Assembly (NCBI GenBank): GCA_963668025.2
Contig: CAXXTH010000023.1
Location: 128,001-192,000, forward strand
Direction: 5' to 3'
DNA: 64,000 nt
Origin: Candidatus Hydrogenedentota bacterium
GTDB taxonomy: Bacteria; Hydrogenedentota; Hydrogenedentia; Hydrogenedentales; SLHB01
In this document: positions 4,132 through 15,118 of the stretch, piece by piece
Layout: each line of letters begins with the position of its first letter
Position numbering within the stretch: position 1 is the stretch's first letter
Made by a program: the position numbers and the translations under genes
The notes under the pieces: model-generated
The model's input: only the letters and a program-made list of their open reading frames with translations
The model's database searches: none
What the model was told of the DNA's origin: nothing

Positions 4132-4203
4132 CGTAGCATGGGCGTCCCGCCCATGAAAAATGTGCTAGAGCCAATGTTTCATGGGCGGGACGCCCATGCT
4201 ACG
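4132..4203. repeat. REP doublet (REPIN/BIME-like), GTAG-type
   Basis: Perfect 27-bp inverted repeat CGTAGCATGGGCGTCCCGCCCATGAAA (4132-4158 and 4177-4203); each arm is itself a hairpin preceded by GTAG. Confidence 0.85.
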
Positions 4204-8694: not shown

Positions 8695-11319
8695 GTGAAA
8701 AGTGATGACATCCGTTCGCAGTATCTCGAGTTCTTCCGCCAGCGCGGCCATGTGGTCGAACGCAGCGACAAGATAGTTCCGAGCAATGACCCGACGCTGT
8801 TGTTCTCCAGTGCGGGGATGGTGCAGTTCAAGCCGTATTATACGGGCCAGGTGCCCGTGCCCTACCGCCGCGCCACGACCTCGCAGAAATGCCTGCGGGC
8901 GGGCGGAAAGGCGAATGATCTGGATGAAGTGGGCAAAACCTCGCGGCACCTGACGTTTTTCGAGATGCTGGGCAATTTCTCGTTCGGCGATTACTTCAAA
9001 CGCGAGGCCATCACGTGGGCGTGGGAATTCAGCACGCGGGTGATCGGCTTCAAGCCCGAGCAAATCTGGGTGTCCGTGTTTACGGATGACGACGAAGCCC
9101 ATGATATTTGGGCGAAAGAGATCGGCGTTTCTGAGTCGCGCATTGTGCGCATGGGCGTGAAAGACAATTTCTGGGGCCCGGCGGGCGATACGGGGGCGTG
9201 CGGCCCTTGTTCGGAATTGCATCTCGACCGGGGCGCGCACATTGATCCGAACGGCACGCTCGAAGAGAATGACAAAGAGCGCTTTATTGAGTTTTGGAAT
9301 TTGGTGTTTCCGCAATTCGACCAACAGGCCGATGGCTCGCGCCCGCCCCTCAAGAATCGCGGCATCGACACCGGCATGGGCCTTGAACGCATGGCGGCGC
9401 TCCTGCAAGGCGTCGATACGGTATTTGATACGGACGGGATTTTCCCCATTATCGAGGCGACGCAGGCCCTTTCCAAAATACCCTACAAGAAAAATCCCGT
9501 GCCGTACCGAGTCATTGCCGACCATGTGCGGTCCCTGTCCTTCATGATTGCAGACGGCGTGCTGCCCGCCAATGACGGCCGGGGCTATGTCGAGCGGCGC
9601 TTGCTGCGCCGGGCGGCGCGGTTTGGCCGTGAGATCGGACTCGAAAAGCCGTTCCTGCACCAAGTGTGCGCGACGGTGGTCGAATTGATGGGCCACCATT
9701 ATCCCGAATTGTGCGAGCGCCAGCATCAGATTGAAAAGATCGTCCTCACGGAGGAGCAGCGGTTCCAAAGCACCTTGGCGCGCGGCATGGATCTGCTCGA
9801 AGAGATTTTCACCAAGATGGGCGGCGGGAAGACCGTTCCCGGCGAAGAATTGTTCCGCCTTCACGACACCTTTGGCTTCCCTCTCGATTTGGCTACGGAC
9901 ATCGCCGAGGATCGCGGCCTGGCGGTGGACCGGGAAGGATTCCAGGCGGCCATGACGCGCCAGCGCGAGAAGGCTCGAAGCGCCTGGGCGGGTTCGGGTG
10001 AATCGGGCATCGCGCCGGTCTACGGTGTTGTGCGCGGCGAAGTGGGCGATACCGAGTTTGTGGGGTACGACGCCTTGAACGCCGAATCGCGCATCGCGGC
10101 GATTATTCGCAACGGCCAGCGGGTTGGCAAGCTGGCGGAAGGCGAAGAAGGTGAGATCGTCCTCGATAAGACGCCGTTCTACGCCGAGTCTGGCGGACAA
10201 GTAGGCGATGTAGGCACGTTTGAATCCAAAGACGGCTGCGCCCATATCTCCGTCGCAAAAAAATTCGCGGGCAAGATGGTGATTCATCTCGCCCGTATCA
10301 CCACCGGCGCGCTCCAAGTGGGTGATGCCATCGAAGCCCAAGTGGACACGGCGGCCCGCGAGGCTACGCAGGGCCATCATACGGCGACCCACCTGCTCCA
10401 GGCGGCGCTCCAGGATATCCTGGGCGATCATGTGCAGCAGGCAGGCTCGCATGTCGGGCCGGACCGGCTCCGTTTCGATTTCACCCATTTCGAGGGCGTG
10501 GACGCGGAACGCTTGCGCGATATCGAGCGCATGGTGAACCAGTTCATCCGCACGGATTCCCCGGTGGATATTGAAAGCATGCCGCTGGATAAGGCCCGCG
10601 AGGCGGGCGCGATGGCGCTGTTCGGTGAGAAATACGAGGATGTGGTGCGCGTCGTGAAAGTCGATGGCATCAGCATGGAGCTGTGCGGCGGCACGCATGT
10701 GGCGCGCACCGGCGTGATCGGCTATTTCACGGTTTTGAGCGAGTCGTCCATTTCGGCGGGCGTGCGGCGCATCGAGGCGGTGTGCGGCGAATCCGCAGTG
10801 GACGCCGTGCAGGAACGCGAACGGCGTCTAACAGCGGCGGCGCGGCTGATGAACGCAAGCCCGGATGATATCGAGGCGCGCGTGCAAGCCATGCAGGACG
10901 AGCTCAAGCGCCTGAACCGGGAAGTCGCTAAATGGAAACAGGCCGCCGCCACCGGCGGTTCGGTGGATTATATGTCCAAAGTGGTGGACCTCGAAGGCGT
11001 GAAGCTGCTGGCCTGTGAAGTGGATGGCCAGGACGCGGCGGGGCTGCGCATGGTCATGGACAACCTGCGCGATAAGCTAGGTTCAGGCGTACTGGTGCTG
11101 GGCAGCGCCGCCGAGGGGAAAGTCTCGTTGTGCGCCGCCGTATCGAAAGACCTCGTCGGCCGGGTGCATGCGGGTAATATCGTCAAGCAACTGGCGCCCA
11201 TCGTGGGCGGCGGCGGCGGCGGTAAACCCGACATGGCGCAAGCGGGTGGCAAGCTCCCCGATAAGTTGAGCGAAGCCATCGCCCAGGTGGAAGTGGTCGT
11301 GCGGGGGATGCTGGCGTAA
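8695..11319 (+). CDS. alaS: Alanine--tRNA ligase
   Basis: DPTLLF..AGMVQFK, RHLTFFEMLGNFSFGDYFK, IDTGMGLER, editing motifs HTATHLL and ELCGGTHV, C-terminal GGGGGKPDMAQAGG. Confidence 0.99.
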   Translation: MKSDDIRSQYLEFFRQRGHVVERSDKIVPSNDPTLLFSSAGMVQFKPYYTGQVPVPYRRATTSQKCLRAGGKANDLDEVGKTSRHLTFFEMLGNFSFGDYFKREAITWAWEFSTRVIGFKPEQIWVSVFTDDDEAHDIWAKEIGVSESRIVRMGVKDNFWGPAGDTGACGPCSELHLDRGAHIDPNGTLEENDKERFIEFWNLVFPQFDQQADGSRPPLKNRGIDTGMGLERMAALLQGVDTVFDTDGIFPIIEATQALSKIPYKKNPVPYRVIADHVRSLSFMIADGVLPANDGRGYVERRLLRRAARFGREIGLEKPFLHQVCATVVELMGHHYPELCERQHQIEKIVLTEEQRFQSTLARGMDLLEEIFTKMGGGKTVPGEELFRLHDTFGFPLDLATDIAEDRGLAVDREGFQAAMTRQREKARSAWAGSGESGIAPVYGVVRGEVGDTEFVGYDALNAESRIAAIIRNGQRVGKLAEGEEGEIVLDKTPFYAESGGQVGDVGTFESKDGCAHISVAKKFAGKMVIHLARITTGALQVGDAIEAQVDTAAREATQGHHTATHLLQAALQDILGDHVQQAGSHVGPDRLRFDFTHFEGVDAERLRDIERMVNQFIRTDSPVDIESMPLDKAREAGAMALFGEKYEDVVRVVKVDGISMELCGGTHVARTGVIGYFTVLSESSISAGVRRIEAVCGESAVDAVQERERRLTAAARLMNASPDDIEARVQAMQDELKRLNREVAKWKQAAATGGSVDYMSKVVDLEGVKLLACEVDGQDAAGLRMVMDNLRDKLGSGVLVLGSAAEGKVSLCAAVSKDLVGRVHAGNIVKQLAPIVGGGGGGKPDMAQAGGKLPDKLSEAIAQVEVVVRGMLA

Positions 11320-11348
11320 CACAAAAATAGAGGCGTCTCGCCTGTGCC

Positions 11349-11502
11349 TTTTTTTAGACATGATTTACAAGATGAACAAGATTTTTTAGATTGGATTTAT
11401 TATGCGAAAGAATCCATGTCTAAAATAAAGAAAACAATGTATGAACTAATGAGAATGCTATGAAAAATCGTTGCTATCATCTTGTAAATCATGCCCAAAA
11501 AA
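11349..11502. repeat. Palindromic repeat copy 1 (left flank of GxxExxY gene)
   Basis: Begins TTTTTTTAGACAT-GATTTACAA-GATGAACAA-GATTTTT and ends ATCATCTTGTAAATCATGCCCAAAA (inverted to the start); direct copy at 11913-12076. Confidence 0.9.
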
Positions 11503-11518
11503 GTAGGGATGCGGAACG

Positions 11519-11905
11519 ATGGAAGTAAACGAATTGACCAAGCTGGTTATTGGTTCCGCCTACACGGTCCATAATGTTCTGGGTTCCGGTTTTTTAGAGA
11601 AAGTGTACGAAAATGCGCTGTTGATCGAGTTGTTGGAGATAGGGTTGTCGGCGAAGCAGCAGGCAGAAATACCGGTTTACTATCGAGGGAAGAACGTAGG
11701 AGATTTTGTGGCGGATCTGATTGTTGAGGATAGGCTTATTATCGAGTTGAAAGCCGTGCAATCCCTTGCCAAAGAGCATGAAGTCCAACTAGTCAATTAT
11801 CTGAACGCGACGGAAATAGAGAATGGGTTGCTCATTAATTTTGGATCTTCCGTCACGGTGAAACGAAAATTCCGCCGATATGAATCCGCGGAAGATATTC
11901 TATAA
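11519..11905 (+). CDS. GxxExxY protein (PD-(D/E)XK-type nuclease fold)
   Basis: LGSGFLEKVYENAL signature, ADLIVE, IIELKA, QLVNYL and GLLINFG; 128 aa; lower GC than flanking genes. Confidence 0.95.
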   Translation: MEVNELTKLVIGSAYTVHNVLGSGFLEKVYENALLIELLEIGLSAKQQAEIPVYYRGKNVGDFVADLIVEDRLIIELKAVQSLAKEHEVQLVNYLNATEIENGLLINFGSSVTVKRKFRRYESAEDIL

Positions 11906-11912
11906 GGTGCTG

Positions 11913-12076
11913 TTTTTTTAGACATGATATACAAGATGGACAAGATTTTTATTGATTGGGTTTACAATAGAAATAAATGAATGACATAAATAAAACACAT
12001 GAGAATGAGTGAACTTATGAGAATGCTATTAAAAATCTTCGTTATCATCTTGTAAATCTTGTTAATCATGTCTAAA
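11913..12076. repeat. Palindromic repeat copy 2 (right flank of GxxExxY gene)
   Basis: Begins TTTTTTTAGACAT-GATATACAA-GATGGACAA-GATTTTT (36/38 identical to copy 1) and ends ATCATCTTGTAAATCTTGTTAATCATGTCTAAA. Confidence 0.9.
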
Positions 12077-12112
12077 TAAAGCATGTGGGGAAACAACATC
12101 AGGATACGCTTT

Positions 12113-12556
12113 ATGTTGGAAGGCCGGATGATCGGGTTAGATATAGGCGATGTGCGGATCGGCGTCGCCGTGAGCGATGGACTGGGCATCACGGCCCAGC
12201 CGCGCGAAGTGATCGCCGTGTCCACGCCCGAGAAGGATATCGCGGTCATCCGGGCCATTATCGAGGAGACGCGCGCCGTGCGCATCGTAGCGGGCTTGCC
12301 GCTTGACCGCGAAGGCAAGGCGGGGCATCAGGCGCAGAAAGTGCTTGGTTTTCTGGATCAGTTGCGCGCCACCATTGAAATTCCCATTGTAATGCAGGAT
12401 GAACGTTTCACGACGGCCTCCGTACAGCGCAGCATGATCGCCGCCGATGTGAGCCGCAAGAAGCGCAAGCAAATAGTGGATAAGCTGGCGGCGCAGCAGA
12501 TTCTACAAGCGTATCTGGACCGGCAGGCCCACGAGCGGAAATACCCTTCGACATGA
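12113..12556 (+). CDS. ruvX: YqgF/RuvX family nuclease
   Basis: IGLDIGDVRIGVAVSD, GLP, QDERFTT and VDKLAAQQILQAYLD; conserved alaS-ruvX-mltG order; ORF open from 12083. Confidence 0.95.
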   Translation: MLEGRMIGLDIGDVRIGVAVSDGLGITAQPREVIAVSTPEKDIAVIRAIIEETRAVRIVAGLPLDREGKAGHQAQKVLGFLDQLRATIEIPIVMQDERFTTASVQRSMIAADVSRKKRKQIVDKLAAQQILQAYLDRQAHERKYPST

Positions 12557-13695
12557 GCAGCGAACACGGCGAGGTGATATTCGGAACGGACGAAGAAAAG
12601 CCCAAGCGTTCCCGCGCCGGATGTTGTCTTCGGGTATTGATTCGCACGGCGCTTGCCTTGCTGGCAATTGCAGCGCTGGCGGCTGCGGGTGTGGGCGTGC
12701 TCGGATATCTGGCCTACGACCGCATCACTGGCACGGGCGCACCAGGTGAAAAGGTGCATGTTGAGATTCCCGAAGGGGCCACGGGCCGTAGCGCGGGACA
12801 GATACTATCCAGCGCGGGCCTCATCGAACACGAATTCATGCTGCGCGGCGCGATGCATCTCGATAAAACAGGCAAGACCATCAAGCATGGCGCATACGAG
12901 CTGCCCAAGGGGCTGTCAGCCATGCAATATCTCGAATTGCTGGACAAGGGGCCAAACGCCGTCTTTGATGCGGGGGGAATTCCGCCGGAACGCCGGTTGA
13001 CTGTTCCCGAGGGCCTCAGCATCAACCAGATGGCCGCCCTCTTCGATGACCCCGAGGCGTTCAAGGAAGCTGCCGCTGATCCAGGCCTCCGCACACGCAT
13101 GGGCGTCCGCGCGGCTACCCTCGAAGGCTTTCTGATGCCGGACACGTATTATTTTGATCAGAAGCCCACGCCGCGCGAGGCCGTCGAGCGCATGGCGTCG
13201 CAGTTCGAACGCGAATTCGCGGAACTGCTTGCTTTGTATCCTCTGCCCGCGGATTATGACCGCGACGCGGTGGTGGCGGTGGCGTCGCTGGTGGAGGAAG
13301 AGGCCAAAGTGGATGAAGAACGTCCGCTGGTGGCGGCGGTCATTTATAATCGATTGAAAAAGGGGATTCCTTTGGGCATGGATTCCACCCTCCAATTTTC
13401 GCTGAACAAATACGGCCAGCGCATGCTCGATGCCGATAAGGAAGTGGATTCGCCTTACAATACGTATAAGAACGCGGGCTTGCCGCCAGGGCCCATATGC
13501 AGCCCTGGCCTTGCCGCCTTGCGCGCCGCGCTCGATCCCGCCCGTGAGAATTACTTATACTTCGTATCGAATGCGGATGGGCGCACGCATACCTTTAGCA
13601 AGACGCTAGAGGAGCATAACCGCGCCGTATCGCGTTTCCGTAAAGAAATTCGGGTGCAGCGGCGGCAGCTTAAGCAGGATACCGATGGCAATTGA
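12553..13695 (+). CDS. mltG: Endolytic transglycosylase
   Basis: N-terminal TM helix, LEGFLMPDTY, VASLVEEEA, SPYNTYKNAGLPPGPICSPG and YLYFV motifs. Confidence 0.96.
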   Translation: MSSEHGEVIFGTDEEKPKRSRAGCCLRVLIRTALALLAIAALAAAGVGVLGYLAYDRITGTGAPGEKVHVEIPEGATGRSAGQILSSAGLIEHEFMLRGAMHLDKTGKTIKHGAYELPKGLSAMQYLELLDKGPNAVFDAGGIPPERRLTVPEGLSINQMAALFDDPEAFKEAAADPGLRTRMGVRAATLEGFLMPDTYYFDQKPTPREAVERMASQFEREFAELLALYPLPADYDRDAVVAVASLVEEEAKVDEERPLVAAVIYNRLKKGIPLGMDSTLQFSLNKYGQRMLDADKEVDSPYNTYKNAGLPPGPICSPGLAALRAALDPARENYLYFVSNADGRTHTFSKTLEEHNRAVSRFRKEIRVQRRQLKQDTDGN

Positions 13696-14491
13696 GCGTA
13701 CACATCACCAGCCCATAGCGCCACGGGAGCGCATTCTTGTGGCGGCGGCCCATGAGCCTGAGCGGGAATTGCGCCTGGCGGAAGCATACGGCACGGGCGT
13801 GGAAATCCAGTATTTTTCATTTCCCCAGACACTTGCGGGTGATTTCGAGCCCGCCCTTTCCCAGTTAGCGGAACGCCTCAATGATTTTCCAGGCCGGATA
13901 GGCGCGCATGGCGCGTTTATCGACACCTGCCATTTCAGCGCCGACCCTGAGGTCCGGCGCGTGGCGCGCATGCGATATATCCAGTCGCTCGATATTGCAG
14001 AACGCCTCGGTGCGCGTTACGTGGTTTTCCACAGCCAATACAATCCCGTGATCAAGGTCGCCGCATATCCACAAATCTATCTCGATGGCAGCCTCGAATT
14101 CTGGCCGCCCATGATTGAAGAGGCCTCGAGGCGCGGCATCGTCCTCTATATGGAGAATATGTTCGATCACTCGCCCGAGCCGCTGCGGCGGCTCATGGAG
14201 CGATTGCACGGGCCGTATTTCCGCGTCTGTATCGATATCGCGCATGTTGCGGTGTTTTCGAGCCTGGATTTTTCGGGCTGGATAGACGAGTTGCAGCCCT
14301 ACTTGGCCCATGTCCACATGAACGATTGCGATGGCGAATTGGATGATCATCTCGGCCTTGGCCGGGGCAAGCTGGATCTGCCGCAGGCTTTCCAATTGCT
14401 GCGCGCCGCCAACTCTGAACTGACCTATACACTCGAAACCAGCCGTGATACGGACGCGAGCATGGCCTATATCGGCCTTGAACCTCTATAA
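13685..14491 (+). CDS. Sugar phosphate isomerase/epimerase family TIM-barrel protein
   Basis: GAHGAF, VVFH, YMENM, CIDIAH, HVHMNDCDG..DDHLGLG.G and TLE metal-binding motifs. Confidence 0.85.
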   Translation: MAIERTHHQPIAPRERILVAAAHEPERELRLAEAYGTGVEIQYFSFPQTLAGDFEPALSQLAERLNDFPGRIGAHGAFIDTCHFSADPEVRRVARMRYIQSLDIAERLGARYVVFHSQYNPVIKVAAYPQIYLDGSLEFWPPMIEEASRRGIVLYMENMFDHSPEPLRRLMERLHGPYFRVCIDIAHVAVFSSLDFSGWIDELQPYLAHVHMNDCDGELDDHLGLGRGKLDLPQAFQLLRAANSELTYTLETSRDTDASMAYIGLEPL

Positions 14492-14619: not shown

Positions 14620-14793
14620 CCACAACCAAAGATCCGGATATTTCACCACGAGATACGAAGGACACGAAGTTTTTCTGTAGATGCTGCTCACAATATCATG
14701 GGCTGAATACCGTTTCGAGAGGCAGCCATTGGTTATGATCATACCGTTTTCTGCTTCGTGTTCTTCGTGCTCTTCGTGGTGAAGCTATCCGGA
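14620..14793. repeat. MITE-like element with 9-bp periodic terminal inverted repeats bounded by TCCGGA
   Basis: Left TCCGGATAT-TTCACCAC-GAGATAC-GAAGGACAC-GAAG; right reverse complement TCCGGATAGC-TTCACCAC-GAAGAGCAC-GAAGAACAC-GAAG; preceded by the leader CCACAACCAAAGA. Confidence 0.75.
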
Positions 14794-14826: not shown

Positions 14827-14883
14827 GCCGTAACCAAAGTGCTTCACTTTTTTACCGCGAATGGACGCGAATGAACGCGAATA
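14827..14883 (+). repeat. Solo arm with 10-bp periodic units
   Basis: GCCGTAACCAAAG leader, then ACCGC-GAATGGACGC-GAATGAACGC-GAAT. Confidence 0.65.
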
Positions 14884-15118
14884 TGTTCTCTGACTTGGGT
14901 TTTGGCCACAATGTAGTATTTGTCGCAGTTTTATCAGTTCCGTCACCAAGGCTAAGCTATTGATTTTAGGAGAATTACAGTCTGCAGGCACTATTGGCGC
15001 CGCAACTTCTTGTTGTTCTTTGCAGCTTCTAAGTTTTAAGGTACTGATATACATGAAATGGAGCAATATTGCTCCTAATGGCGTTGGACTCCTAAAAAAT
15101 AGACTCGCGGGATATCAC

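Follow-up and report, generated by a model that had tools for sequence, protein, structure and literature searches.

GxxExxY nuclease genes framed by inverted arrays of short tandem units: a candidate selfish module with the architecture of rRNA intervening sequences

REPIN-RAYT systems consist of a small enzyme gene flanked by cognate palindromic repeats, together with many gene-less palindromic doublets in the same genome. The enzyme, RAYT, is a HUH/Y1 (IS200/IS605-type) transposase, each enzyme lineage has its own repeat, RAYTs are described as mostly inherited vertically, and the REP hairpin carries a conserved tetranucleotide. Intervening sequences (IVSs) of 23S rRNA are another element in which a small open reading frame (ORF) lies within repeats. 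According to one account, the Coxiella IVS is a 428-nt element in which inverted repeats at the termini pair into a 28-bp stem, with tandem GACAGAT heptamers, variable in number between strains, beside its S23p ORF and with RNase III cutting at the first repeat (PMC4990558). The same paper cites an older proposal by Ralph and McClelland that IVSs are mobile and that the ORF serves this mobility. Here we analyse a 64,000-nt stretch of DNA from a Candidatus Hydrogenedentota bacterium (the window; C23:128001-192000 of the 6.1-Mb source genome G000, C numbers being contigs of that genome), in which a gene of the GxxExxY/PDDEXK_3 family lies between two palindromes at the junction of alaS and ruvX. 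The closest described relative of this cassette is the ORF-bearing 23S rRNA IVS (Leptospira, Coxiella and others) rather than RAYT, and we hold with high confidence that such genes, with the inverted arrays of short units around them (here called arms), form a class of selfish, arm-framed modules.

Both the cassette and the IVS carry an ORF of about 120 aa inside terminal inverted repeats with short tandem units, and both lie within a transcribed host unit. They differ in that the ORF of the cassette encodes a PF13366 PD-(D/E)XK nuclease and that of the IVS the S23p/PF05635 four-helix bundle, in unit length (9 bp in the cassette, 7 bp in the IVS), and in location, the cassette standing at an mRNA operon junction (alaS/ruvX) and the IVS in a 23S rRNA helix. 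The cassette also has a complete hairpin on each side where the IVS has one stem, and GxxExxY arms occur in many gene-less copies. The original prediction had drawn its analogy with RAYT and REPINs instead, and this held in part. As in REPIN-RAYT systems, the enzyme gene is flanked by cognate palindromes, the repeats are lineage-specific, and gene-less copies are numerous, in this and in other genomes, but the nearest relative proved to be the rRNA IVS. The enzyme matches PD-(D/E)XK families only and not HUH/Y1, its arms combine a T-run with arrayed 9-bp units and are not a REP hairpin, and the GxxExxY module has itself moved into new sites. A small ORF within inverted short-unit arrays is known for S23p in rRNA, whereas the GxxExxY version was not found in the searchable literature, which likewise yielded no description of repeats flanking GxxExxY genes (bioRxiv supplements and NCBIfam/TIGRFAM curator comments lay outside its reach). 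GxxExxY/PDDEXK_3 is a large family without known function; a PD-(D/E)XK survey gives its function as “Unknown” (PMC3424549), and the other mentions of the family in the accessible literature leave the function unassigned or name it merely as a reverse transcriptase neighbour.

The gene product is a member of this family by both available profiles (PF13366, 8e-41, 139.5 bits, cut-off 22; TIGR04256, 1.7e-40, 138 bits, cut-off 35), in agreement with the predicted 128-aa GxxExxY gene between two direct repeats. The motif G24-x-x-E27-x-x-Y30 and the PD-(D/E)XK triad (D66, E76, K78) are present; Y30, V53, G61, D66, E76, Y94 and F108 are invariant in 85 homologues, and G24, F25, E27 and K78 are at least 90% conserved. 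An AF2 model (pLDDT 92.4) shows a PD-(D/E)XK alpha-beta core, for which the top fold matches in the PDB were Cas4 SSO0001 (E 1.8e-5, TMq 0.58), lambda-type exonucleases and Hjc, the size-matched Hjc 2wcw giving a TM of 0.46-0.50 over ~100 residues. The modelled protein therefore resembles Hjc and the Cas4 core in fold, size and D...ExK triad; it differs from them in lacking membership at the sequence level, since a PDB sequence search returned nothing relevant (a match to ketol-acid reductoisomerase was spurious). Cutting of junctions or hairpins by the GxxExxY protein is a guess from this modelled fold. PHROGs gave no match, and PADLOC gave faint matches only (Cas4, E 0.005, and PDC-M36A), with no defence-system partner seen.

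A repeat search recovered all of the predicted repeat structure around the gene. The left arms (11349-11386 and 11913-11950) are 95% identical (36/38; family D3), the right parts (11436-11493 and 12004-12061) are 86% identical across 58 nt (D1), and the ends of each palindrome are inverted, with 92% identity over 26 nt in palindrome 1 (11350-11375 / 11477-11502, I3) and 85% over 34 nt in palindrome 2 (11913-11946 / 12047-12080, I2). Palindrome 2 has an additional 9-bp unit, in its right arm (ATCTTGTAAATCTTGTTAATCATG vs ATCTTGTAAATCATG). The interval first proposed for the cassette, 11349..12076, was correct at its left end, while the true right end is 12080. Palindrome 1, the 128-codon gene and palindrome 2 form an AT-rich block (11349-12080) with a GC content of 0.28-0.47, compared with ~0.64 outside. 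The arm motif has four matches in the window, compared with none in 100 shuffles, and is confined to the cassette. Folded as single-stranded DNA, palindromes 1 and 2 reach -22.9 and -22.2 kcal/mol (z -5.5 and -4.0), values equalled by none of 200 shuffles.

A second GxxExxY gene (C17:83194-83574), whose protein is 88% identical, lies between sufC and sufD and again between two palindromes of the same kind. The two 730-bp modules can be aligned solely between their outermost arms, starting exactly at 11349 and ending at about 12080 in window coordinates; hence the module moves as a unit bounded by these arms. Identity between the two is 38-39% in the flanks, 81% in the gene and 58-67% in the palindromes, where the arms are nearly identical and the loops have diverged. 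Despite a synonymous divergence (dS) of 1.27 in the gene, the four arms match at 33/36, 33/36, 31/36 and 26/36 positions, and the arms are constrained as sequence motifs. The non-synonymous divergence (dN) was 0.055, a ratio of 0.043, and the protein is under strong purifying selection. A loop motif, GAACTWATGAGRATGCT, occurs in three of the four palindromes that flank the modules (window 11440-11465 and 12010-12030; C17:83700-83720) and is absent from gene-less palindromes.

Both host junctions are compact in related genomes. Among 29 ruvX loci from relatives of the same family and order, alaS lay directly upstream of ruvX in 18, and the alaS-ruvX gap in these 18 was 8-160 bp, compared with 796 bp here. 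None of the 29 carried a GxxExxY gene at this position, so vertical conservation at the site, which would have refuted the original interpretation, was not seen. Likewise, sufC and sufD are 765 bp apart here, as against 17-151 bp in 27 of 29 relatives, with the gene again in none of the 29; of the remaining two loci one holds an unrelated small ORF and the other is rearranged. A 730-bp unit was therefore inserted into the alaS-ruvX junction, as predicted, and a second copy into sufC-sufD, each module being co-directional with the operon that it splits. In one relative (locus L174; G026:C776) a sufC-sufD gap of ~615 bp contains a small membrane-protein-like ORF without arm-type repeats.

The same architecture is found across the family. 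GxxExxY matches were present in 36 of 41 related genomes (G000 counted) and absent from five, and inverted arms of 8-9-bp units were seen in 10/10 of those loci with scorable flanks among 11 loci from relatives. A wider set was formed by the best 80 of 579 tblastn-confirmed relatives, one genome per species being scanned; these 80 came from Acidobacteriota, Bacteroidota, Planctomycetota, Verrucomicrobiota, Chloroflexota, Desulfobacterota, Spirochaetota, Bacillota and Nitrospirota and, among archaea, from ANME-2 and Methanosarcinales. After 10 of 92 loci (L001-L092) were dropped for short flanks, 82 were scored, the window's own included, by the best local alignment of 350 bp upstream with the reverse complement of 350 bp downstream; the controls were 262 windows taken from the same loci at a shift of 1100 or 1500 bp (95th percentile 23). 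Inverted arms exceeded this percentile in 69/82 loci, with a median score of 37.5 compared with 19 in controls (control maximum 38), and the expectation that GxxExxY genes in general would have such flanks survived. Arms usually consist of a T-run and 2-5 units, such as ACAGGAT, ACACGGAT, ACGCGGAT, ACACAGAT, ACGCTGAT or ACAGAAT, and the best self-similarity lag was 9 bp in 41/82 loci compared with 8/82 after shuffling; a stricter periodicity test (20-of-24 threshold) detected almost nothing, being too strict, and the best-lag test was used. The 69 positive loci comprised 32 with one arm per side and the gene in the loop, 24 with a hairpin on one side and 13 with hairpins on both sides, the type to which the window cassette belongs. 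The upstream neighbour was co-directional in 65 of 79 loci. Carriage on viruses or plasmids was rare, with one locus on a viral contig, one haloarchaeal virus (present as two records) and 8 of 72,556 plasmid records containing GxxExxY. In summary, GxxExxY genes are framed by lineage-specific, mostly 9-bp-periodic inverted arms across many phyla, archaea included, and a spread across phyla is evident.

Comparable arms surround the protein family named after the rRNA IVS. Relatives' loci of PF05635 (“23S rRNA IVS protein”, a four-helix bundle) exceeded the same inverted-arm threshold in 21 of 27 cases, compared with 3 of 38 controls, with a best lag of 7 bp in 20 of the 27 and 14 bp in four. Unit length thus depends on which protein family is encoded, being 9 bp with GxxExxY and 7 bp with the four-helix bundle. 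The source genome has one clear PF05635 gene, framed by inverted TAGGGTCT-like arrays. This gene (C18:379096-379412; L123) is seemingly split in two frames (profile positions 1-64 and 64-106), its inverted TAGGGTCT-type units are 8 bp long, and it is inserted between two co-directional host genes. No similarity to large-subunit rRNA was found in the 92 GxxExxY loci. The 23S rRNA gene of this genome (C23:70266-73271; L126) is 3006 nt long against 2925 model positions.

Arms without a gene are numerous in the source genome. A BLAST search with the 38-nt arm against all 6.1 Mb returned 109 arm matches, forming 42 inverted pairs (91-298 bp apart, mostly 150-165) and 25 solo arms, set against two gene copies, and almost all of the 42 palindromes have no gene. 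Forty of the 42 are intergenic; open frames of at least 150 aa underlie 4.8% of them, compared with 91.5% of 400 positions chosen at random. The arm consensus is T5-7, A/T, GACA(T/G)GAT, T(T/A), ACA(A/T)GAT, two variable bases, ACAAGAT, i.e. a T-run and GAC followed by ACAnGAT with a 2-nt spacer, repeated 2-4 times, and from this we derive a 9-bp unit with a 7-base core. In the 38 of 42 palindromes that could be anchored, likeness at variable arm positions within and between palindromes was 0.71/0.66, 0.63/0.62, 0.61/0.55 and 0.47/0.40. A palindrome's own two arms thus resemble each other no more than they resemble arms from other palindromes, and it is the motif that is conserved and not the pairing. 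Past the last shared unit, identity of arms was 0.08-0.13 within an element and 0.37-0.43 between elements; the two arms differ systematically here, so that a left end of the element can be told from a right end.

Other arm families of this genome have 14-63 matches each, and gene-less arms recur elsewhere: of the 20 cognate arms in the genome of an ANME-2 archaeon, 18 are on contigs without a GxxExxY gene, and in an Acidobacteriota genome with one such gene six of eight arms stand elsewhere without it. The ANME-2 genome (G041) also has several arm pairs placed tail-to-tail, 8 nt apart with the T-run/GAC ends central (e.g. C91:15477-15547 of that genome), a polarity opposite to that of the hairpins in the window; these may be junctions of adjacent modules. 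It had originally been proposed that recombination between the two repeats of the cassette would leave a solo palindrome like others in the window. This was not supported, because no solo palindrome in the genome has the loop of either cassette copy, and gene-less copies are therefore not recombination products of the two repeats. Nor did the window hold further palindromes like those of the cassette, as had been supposed, the others belonging to other arm families (14643-14783, 14852-14886) or being unrelated (4132-4203). Some public runs cover 88-99% of the window, with no RNA run among those listed. In their contigs one joint (run X6) passes from 11385 to 12054 and so leaves out the gene; it was considered as an excision product and rejected, since 18 other letters lie between its sides, and is read as another short palindrome copy.

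Arm sequence tracks protein lineage, as the original prediction had proposed to check. Paralogues in the source genome that are 34-49% identical to the cassette protein each have different arms (Table 1), most with hairpins on both sides, while the arm type of the cassette itself is ACAAGAT; conversely, a Rhodothermaeota protein 59% identical to the cassette protein has nearly the same arm (L014). Over the 82 modules, shared flank 8-mers rose from 16.5 at 40-50% protein identity to 25.8 at 60-70% and 37.8 above 70%. The Spearman correlation of arm similarity with protein identity was 0.24, which none of 500 permutations reached, though host relatedness confounds this value and related genomes are not independent. 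The pattern GACAKGATTNACANGAT occurs 89 times in the source genome and 60, 50, 34, 31, 23, 21, 18, 13 and 11 times in the richest others. It is patchy, with 21 genomes having none (40 relatives), and the reversed-pattern control gave zero in 41/41 genomes. Its presence followed the best GxxExxY match, being found in 12 of 14 genomes with a match of at least 50% identity, 7 of 21 where the match was weaker and 0 of 5 that lacked one. GxxExxY fragments, truncated or frameshifted, lie by GGCGCAAAG-type hairpins at C23:334254-334688, C21:37262-37599 and C21:32274-32525 and look like decaying modules.

The original interpretation is thus partly supported, and from the sequence comparisons above we give slightly better than even chances to the reading that the cassette is a selfish module resembling an IVS, in which the nuclease acts on the module's own arms and also spreads gene-less palindromes in the manner of RAYT and REPINs. 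Under this mechanism the predicted nuclease, probably as an oligomer, would recognise the tandem units of its own arms and would cut at or near the hairpin or cruciform that the arms can form. Repair or copying would then spread the gene-bearing module via its outermost arms, and the gene-less palindromes would be non-autonomous copies served in trans, as RAYT serves REPINs. Because the module is usually co-directional inside transcription units, its arm stems are probably cut by host RNases, which would trim it from the transcript as in rRNA IVSs; insertion into operons would therefore be tolerable.

Several observations weigh against this reading. No target-site duplication was detected, the longest flank repeat having a mean of 2.5 nt at 42 palindromes and 2.39 nt in 2000 mismatched pairs, although short A or T duplications could be hidden because the ends in T/A runs are ambiguous. 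A clean excision joint was not seen in contigs of public runs, and domains of a transposase, recombinase or ligase are missing from the protein. In 13 of the 82 loci no inverted repeat spans the gene, and as the best 80 of 579 relatives the wider set is biased to this clade. Co-variation of arm and protein could be due to common descent of each module alone. Most gene-less palindromes form the core of a ~290-bp repeat with its own terminal inverted repeats, and for this reason they may ride on that larger element; no empty ~290-bp repeat was found, 10/10 full-length matches to the outer left flank carrying the palindrome. Finally, the unrelated four-helix-bundle family shares the architecture, so that nuclease chemistry cannot be the whole story. 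With arms like these around genes of a non-nuclease family, some other factor may serve the arms, or their action may be at the RNA level. One example of the composite repeat (C17:558467-558756) has outer terminal inverted repeats GTAACACTTTAGCCGACTGAAG..., and some variants have a second, GCGAATA-like array outside.

This last possibility leads to the most serious alternative, which we nevertheless judge unlikely. Here the element would work at the RNA level, its arms being double-stranded stems for RNase III, the module being trimmed harmlessly from operon transcripts, and the nuclease being cargo with another role, while spread would occur by another route. The Coxiella IVS, with its stem, its heptamers and RNase III cutting at the first repeat (PMC4990558), provides a precedent. 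Both modules here are co-directional within conserved operons, and the upstream neighbour has the same direction in 65 of 79 loci; a 793-nt transcript is also predicted to fold with both hairpins (z -3.5, 20 shuffles). However, conservation lies in the motif and not in pairing as such (e.g. 0.63 vs 0.62 and 0.47 vs 0.40 within and between palindromes). An RNA stem would also leave unexplained why arms are lineage-specific, why gene-less copies proliferate and why catalytic residues are under strong purifying selection, and unit length depends on the protein family (9 vs 7 bp).

Another possibility, which we regard as improbable, is that the palindromes resemble MITEs (miniature inverted-repeat transposable elements), moved by a transposase encoded elsewhere, and that the GxxExxY gene is a passenger that happened to be enclosed by two of them, in the manner of a composite transposon. 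Like MITEs and foldback elements the palindromes are short, AT-rich and intergenic, with conserved termini and variable cores, and tandem sub-repeats make up their arms, as they do in foldback elements. The gene does lie between two complete palindromes, the duplicated unit is bounded by the outermost arms, ~40 gene-less palindromes stand against two gene copies, and the surrounding ~290-bp repeat has termini of its own. Capture would, however, have to be repeated in 69/82 loci over many phyla, with lineage-specific arms even within one genome, and in 32 of the 69 the gene is inside a single arm pair. That no target-site duplication was detected at the 42 palindromes is a further difference from MITEs and insertion sequences. 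The co-occurring partner is the 128-aa nuclease, with no DDE or other transposase partner identified (transposases with these termini were not searched for), and across 40 relatives the presence of arms tracks a clade-matched GxxExxY gene, which points the same way. Just as improbable is a nuclease useful to the host in repair, defence or addiction, with the tandem units as its own regulatory sites and the scattered copies as decoys or regulon sites: strong purifying selection, the weak Cas4 similarity (PADLOC E 0.005; fold search) and tandem units close to the coding region, an arm often beginning a few bases from the stop codon, would suit such a role, but distribution is patchy (arms absent in 21/41 genomes, a GxxExxY match in 5/41), genomes hold many paralogues and fragments, the modules are inserted into unrelated conserved operons, and PADLOC matches are faint with no defence-system partner seen.

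The surroundings of the cassette in the window are listed in Table 1 with the paralogues. Upstream, 29 bases separate the end of alaS from the AT-rich block, the GC hairpin among them, and the C-terminal 299 aa of AlaS have a 63-72% match directly upstream of ruvX in the 18 relatives. Terminator-like sites by the consensus scan numbered two, compared with 0.6 in shuffles. The start of ruvX is not fixed, its ORF opening at 12083 and homology beginning at 12113, and ruvX matches were found in 39/41 genomes. A promoter scan gave one site against a shuffle mean of 2.2, hence no excess over chance, and an Rfam scan of 11000-12500 at E up to 1 returned STnc50 alone, at E 0.5 and well below its threshold.

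Table 1 Features at the alaS-ruvX insertion (window positions) and arm types of GxxExxY paralogues elsewhere in the source genome
Feature	Position	Strand	Basis or layout
alaS (alanyl-tRNA synthetase), left host gene	8695..11319	+	874-aa ORF
Short GC hairpin, terminator-like, outside the module, just before the T-run	11331..11343	+	consensus scan only
Palindrome 1, 155 bp	11349..11503	.	left and right arms 11349-11386 and about 11466-11503, around an AT-rich loop
GxxExxY / PDDEXK_3 gene, 128 aa	11519..11905	+	profile matches, conserved motif, structure model
Palindrome 2, 168 bp	11913..12080	.	left and right arms 11913-11950 and 12047-12080, around a loop; additional unit in the right arm
ruvX (YqgF-type putative resolvase), right host gene	12113..12556	+	homology from 12113 to 12553
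mltG, next gene in the conserved order	12553..13695	+	ORF, relatives' gene order
Paralogue, arm type ACGCGAAT	C17:511061		
Paralogue, arm type ACACGAAA	C18:315039		
Paralogue, arm type CCACAGAG	C21:77772		
Paralogue, arm type GGCGCAAAG	C21:37477 and gene fragments on C23		
Paralogue, arm type ACAAAGGC	C8:160985		

Three further repeats were noted in the window. The intergenic region after a gene ending at 14491 contains a gene-less palindrome (14643-14783) with arms of 9-bp ACGAAG units (CCACGAGATACGAAGGACACGAAG ...) and six matches in the genome, and also a solo arm (14852-14886) of the ACGCGAAT family, which frames the paralogue at C17:511061. The third, at 4132-4203, is an unrelated, near-perfect GC-rich palindrome with 35-nt arms, 91% complementary and 2 nt apart.

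Returning to the reading of a nuclease that acts on its own arms, a broader version can be put forward tentatively, and we place it somewhat below even chances: GxxExxY (9-bp) and S23p-type (7-bp) modules would each be a branch of a single, pan-prokaryotic class of minimal autonomous elements. A protein of ~120 aa would in this class read the tandem units in the inverted arms around its gene, so copying the module along with its gene-less palindromes, and the ORF-bearing rRNA IVSs would simply be the members that landed in rRNA. If true, this would provide a testable enzyme-substrate pair for the unexplained origin and mobility of IVSs, as well as a further REPIN-like repeat system with a different enzyme. 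For the GxxExxY family the analysis offers a concrete, testable role and substrate and links it to the unexplained ORF-bearing rRNA IVSs. Should the nuclease indeed act on its arms, the RAYT/REPIN lifestyle would have been reached a second time and independently, and the nuclease would be both a compact system of DNA recognition that is sequence-programmable and an origin of intergenic repeat families among environmental bacteria and archaea.

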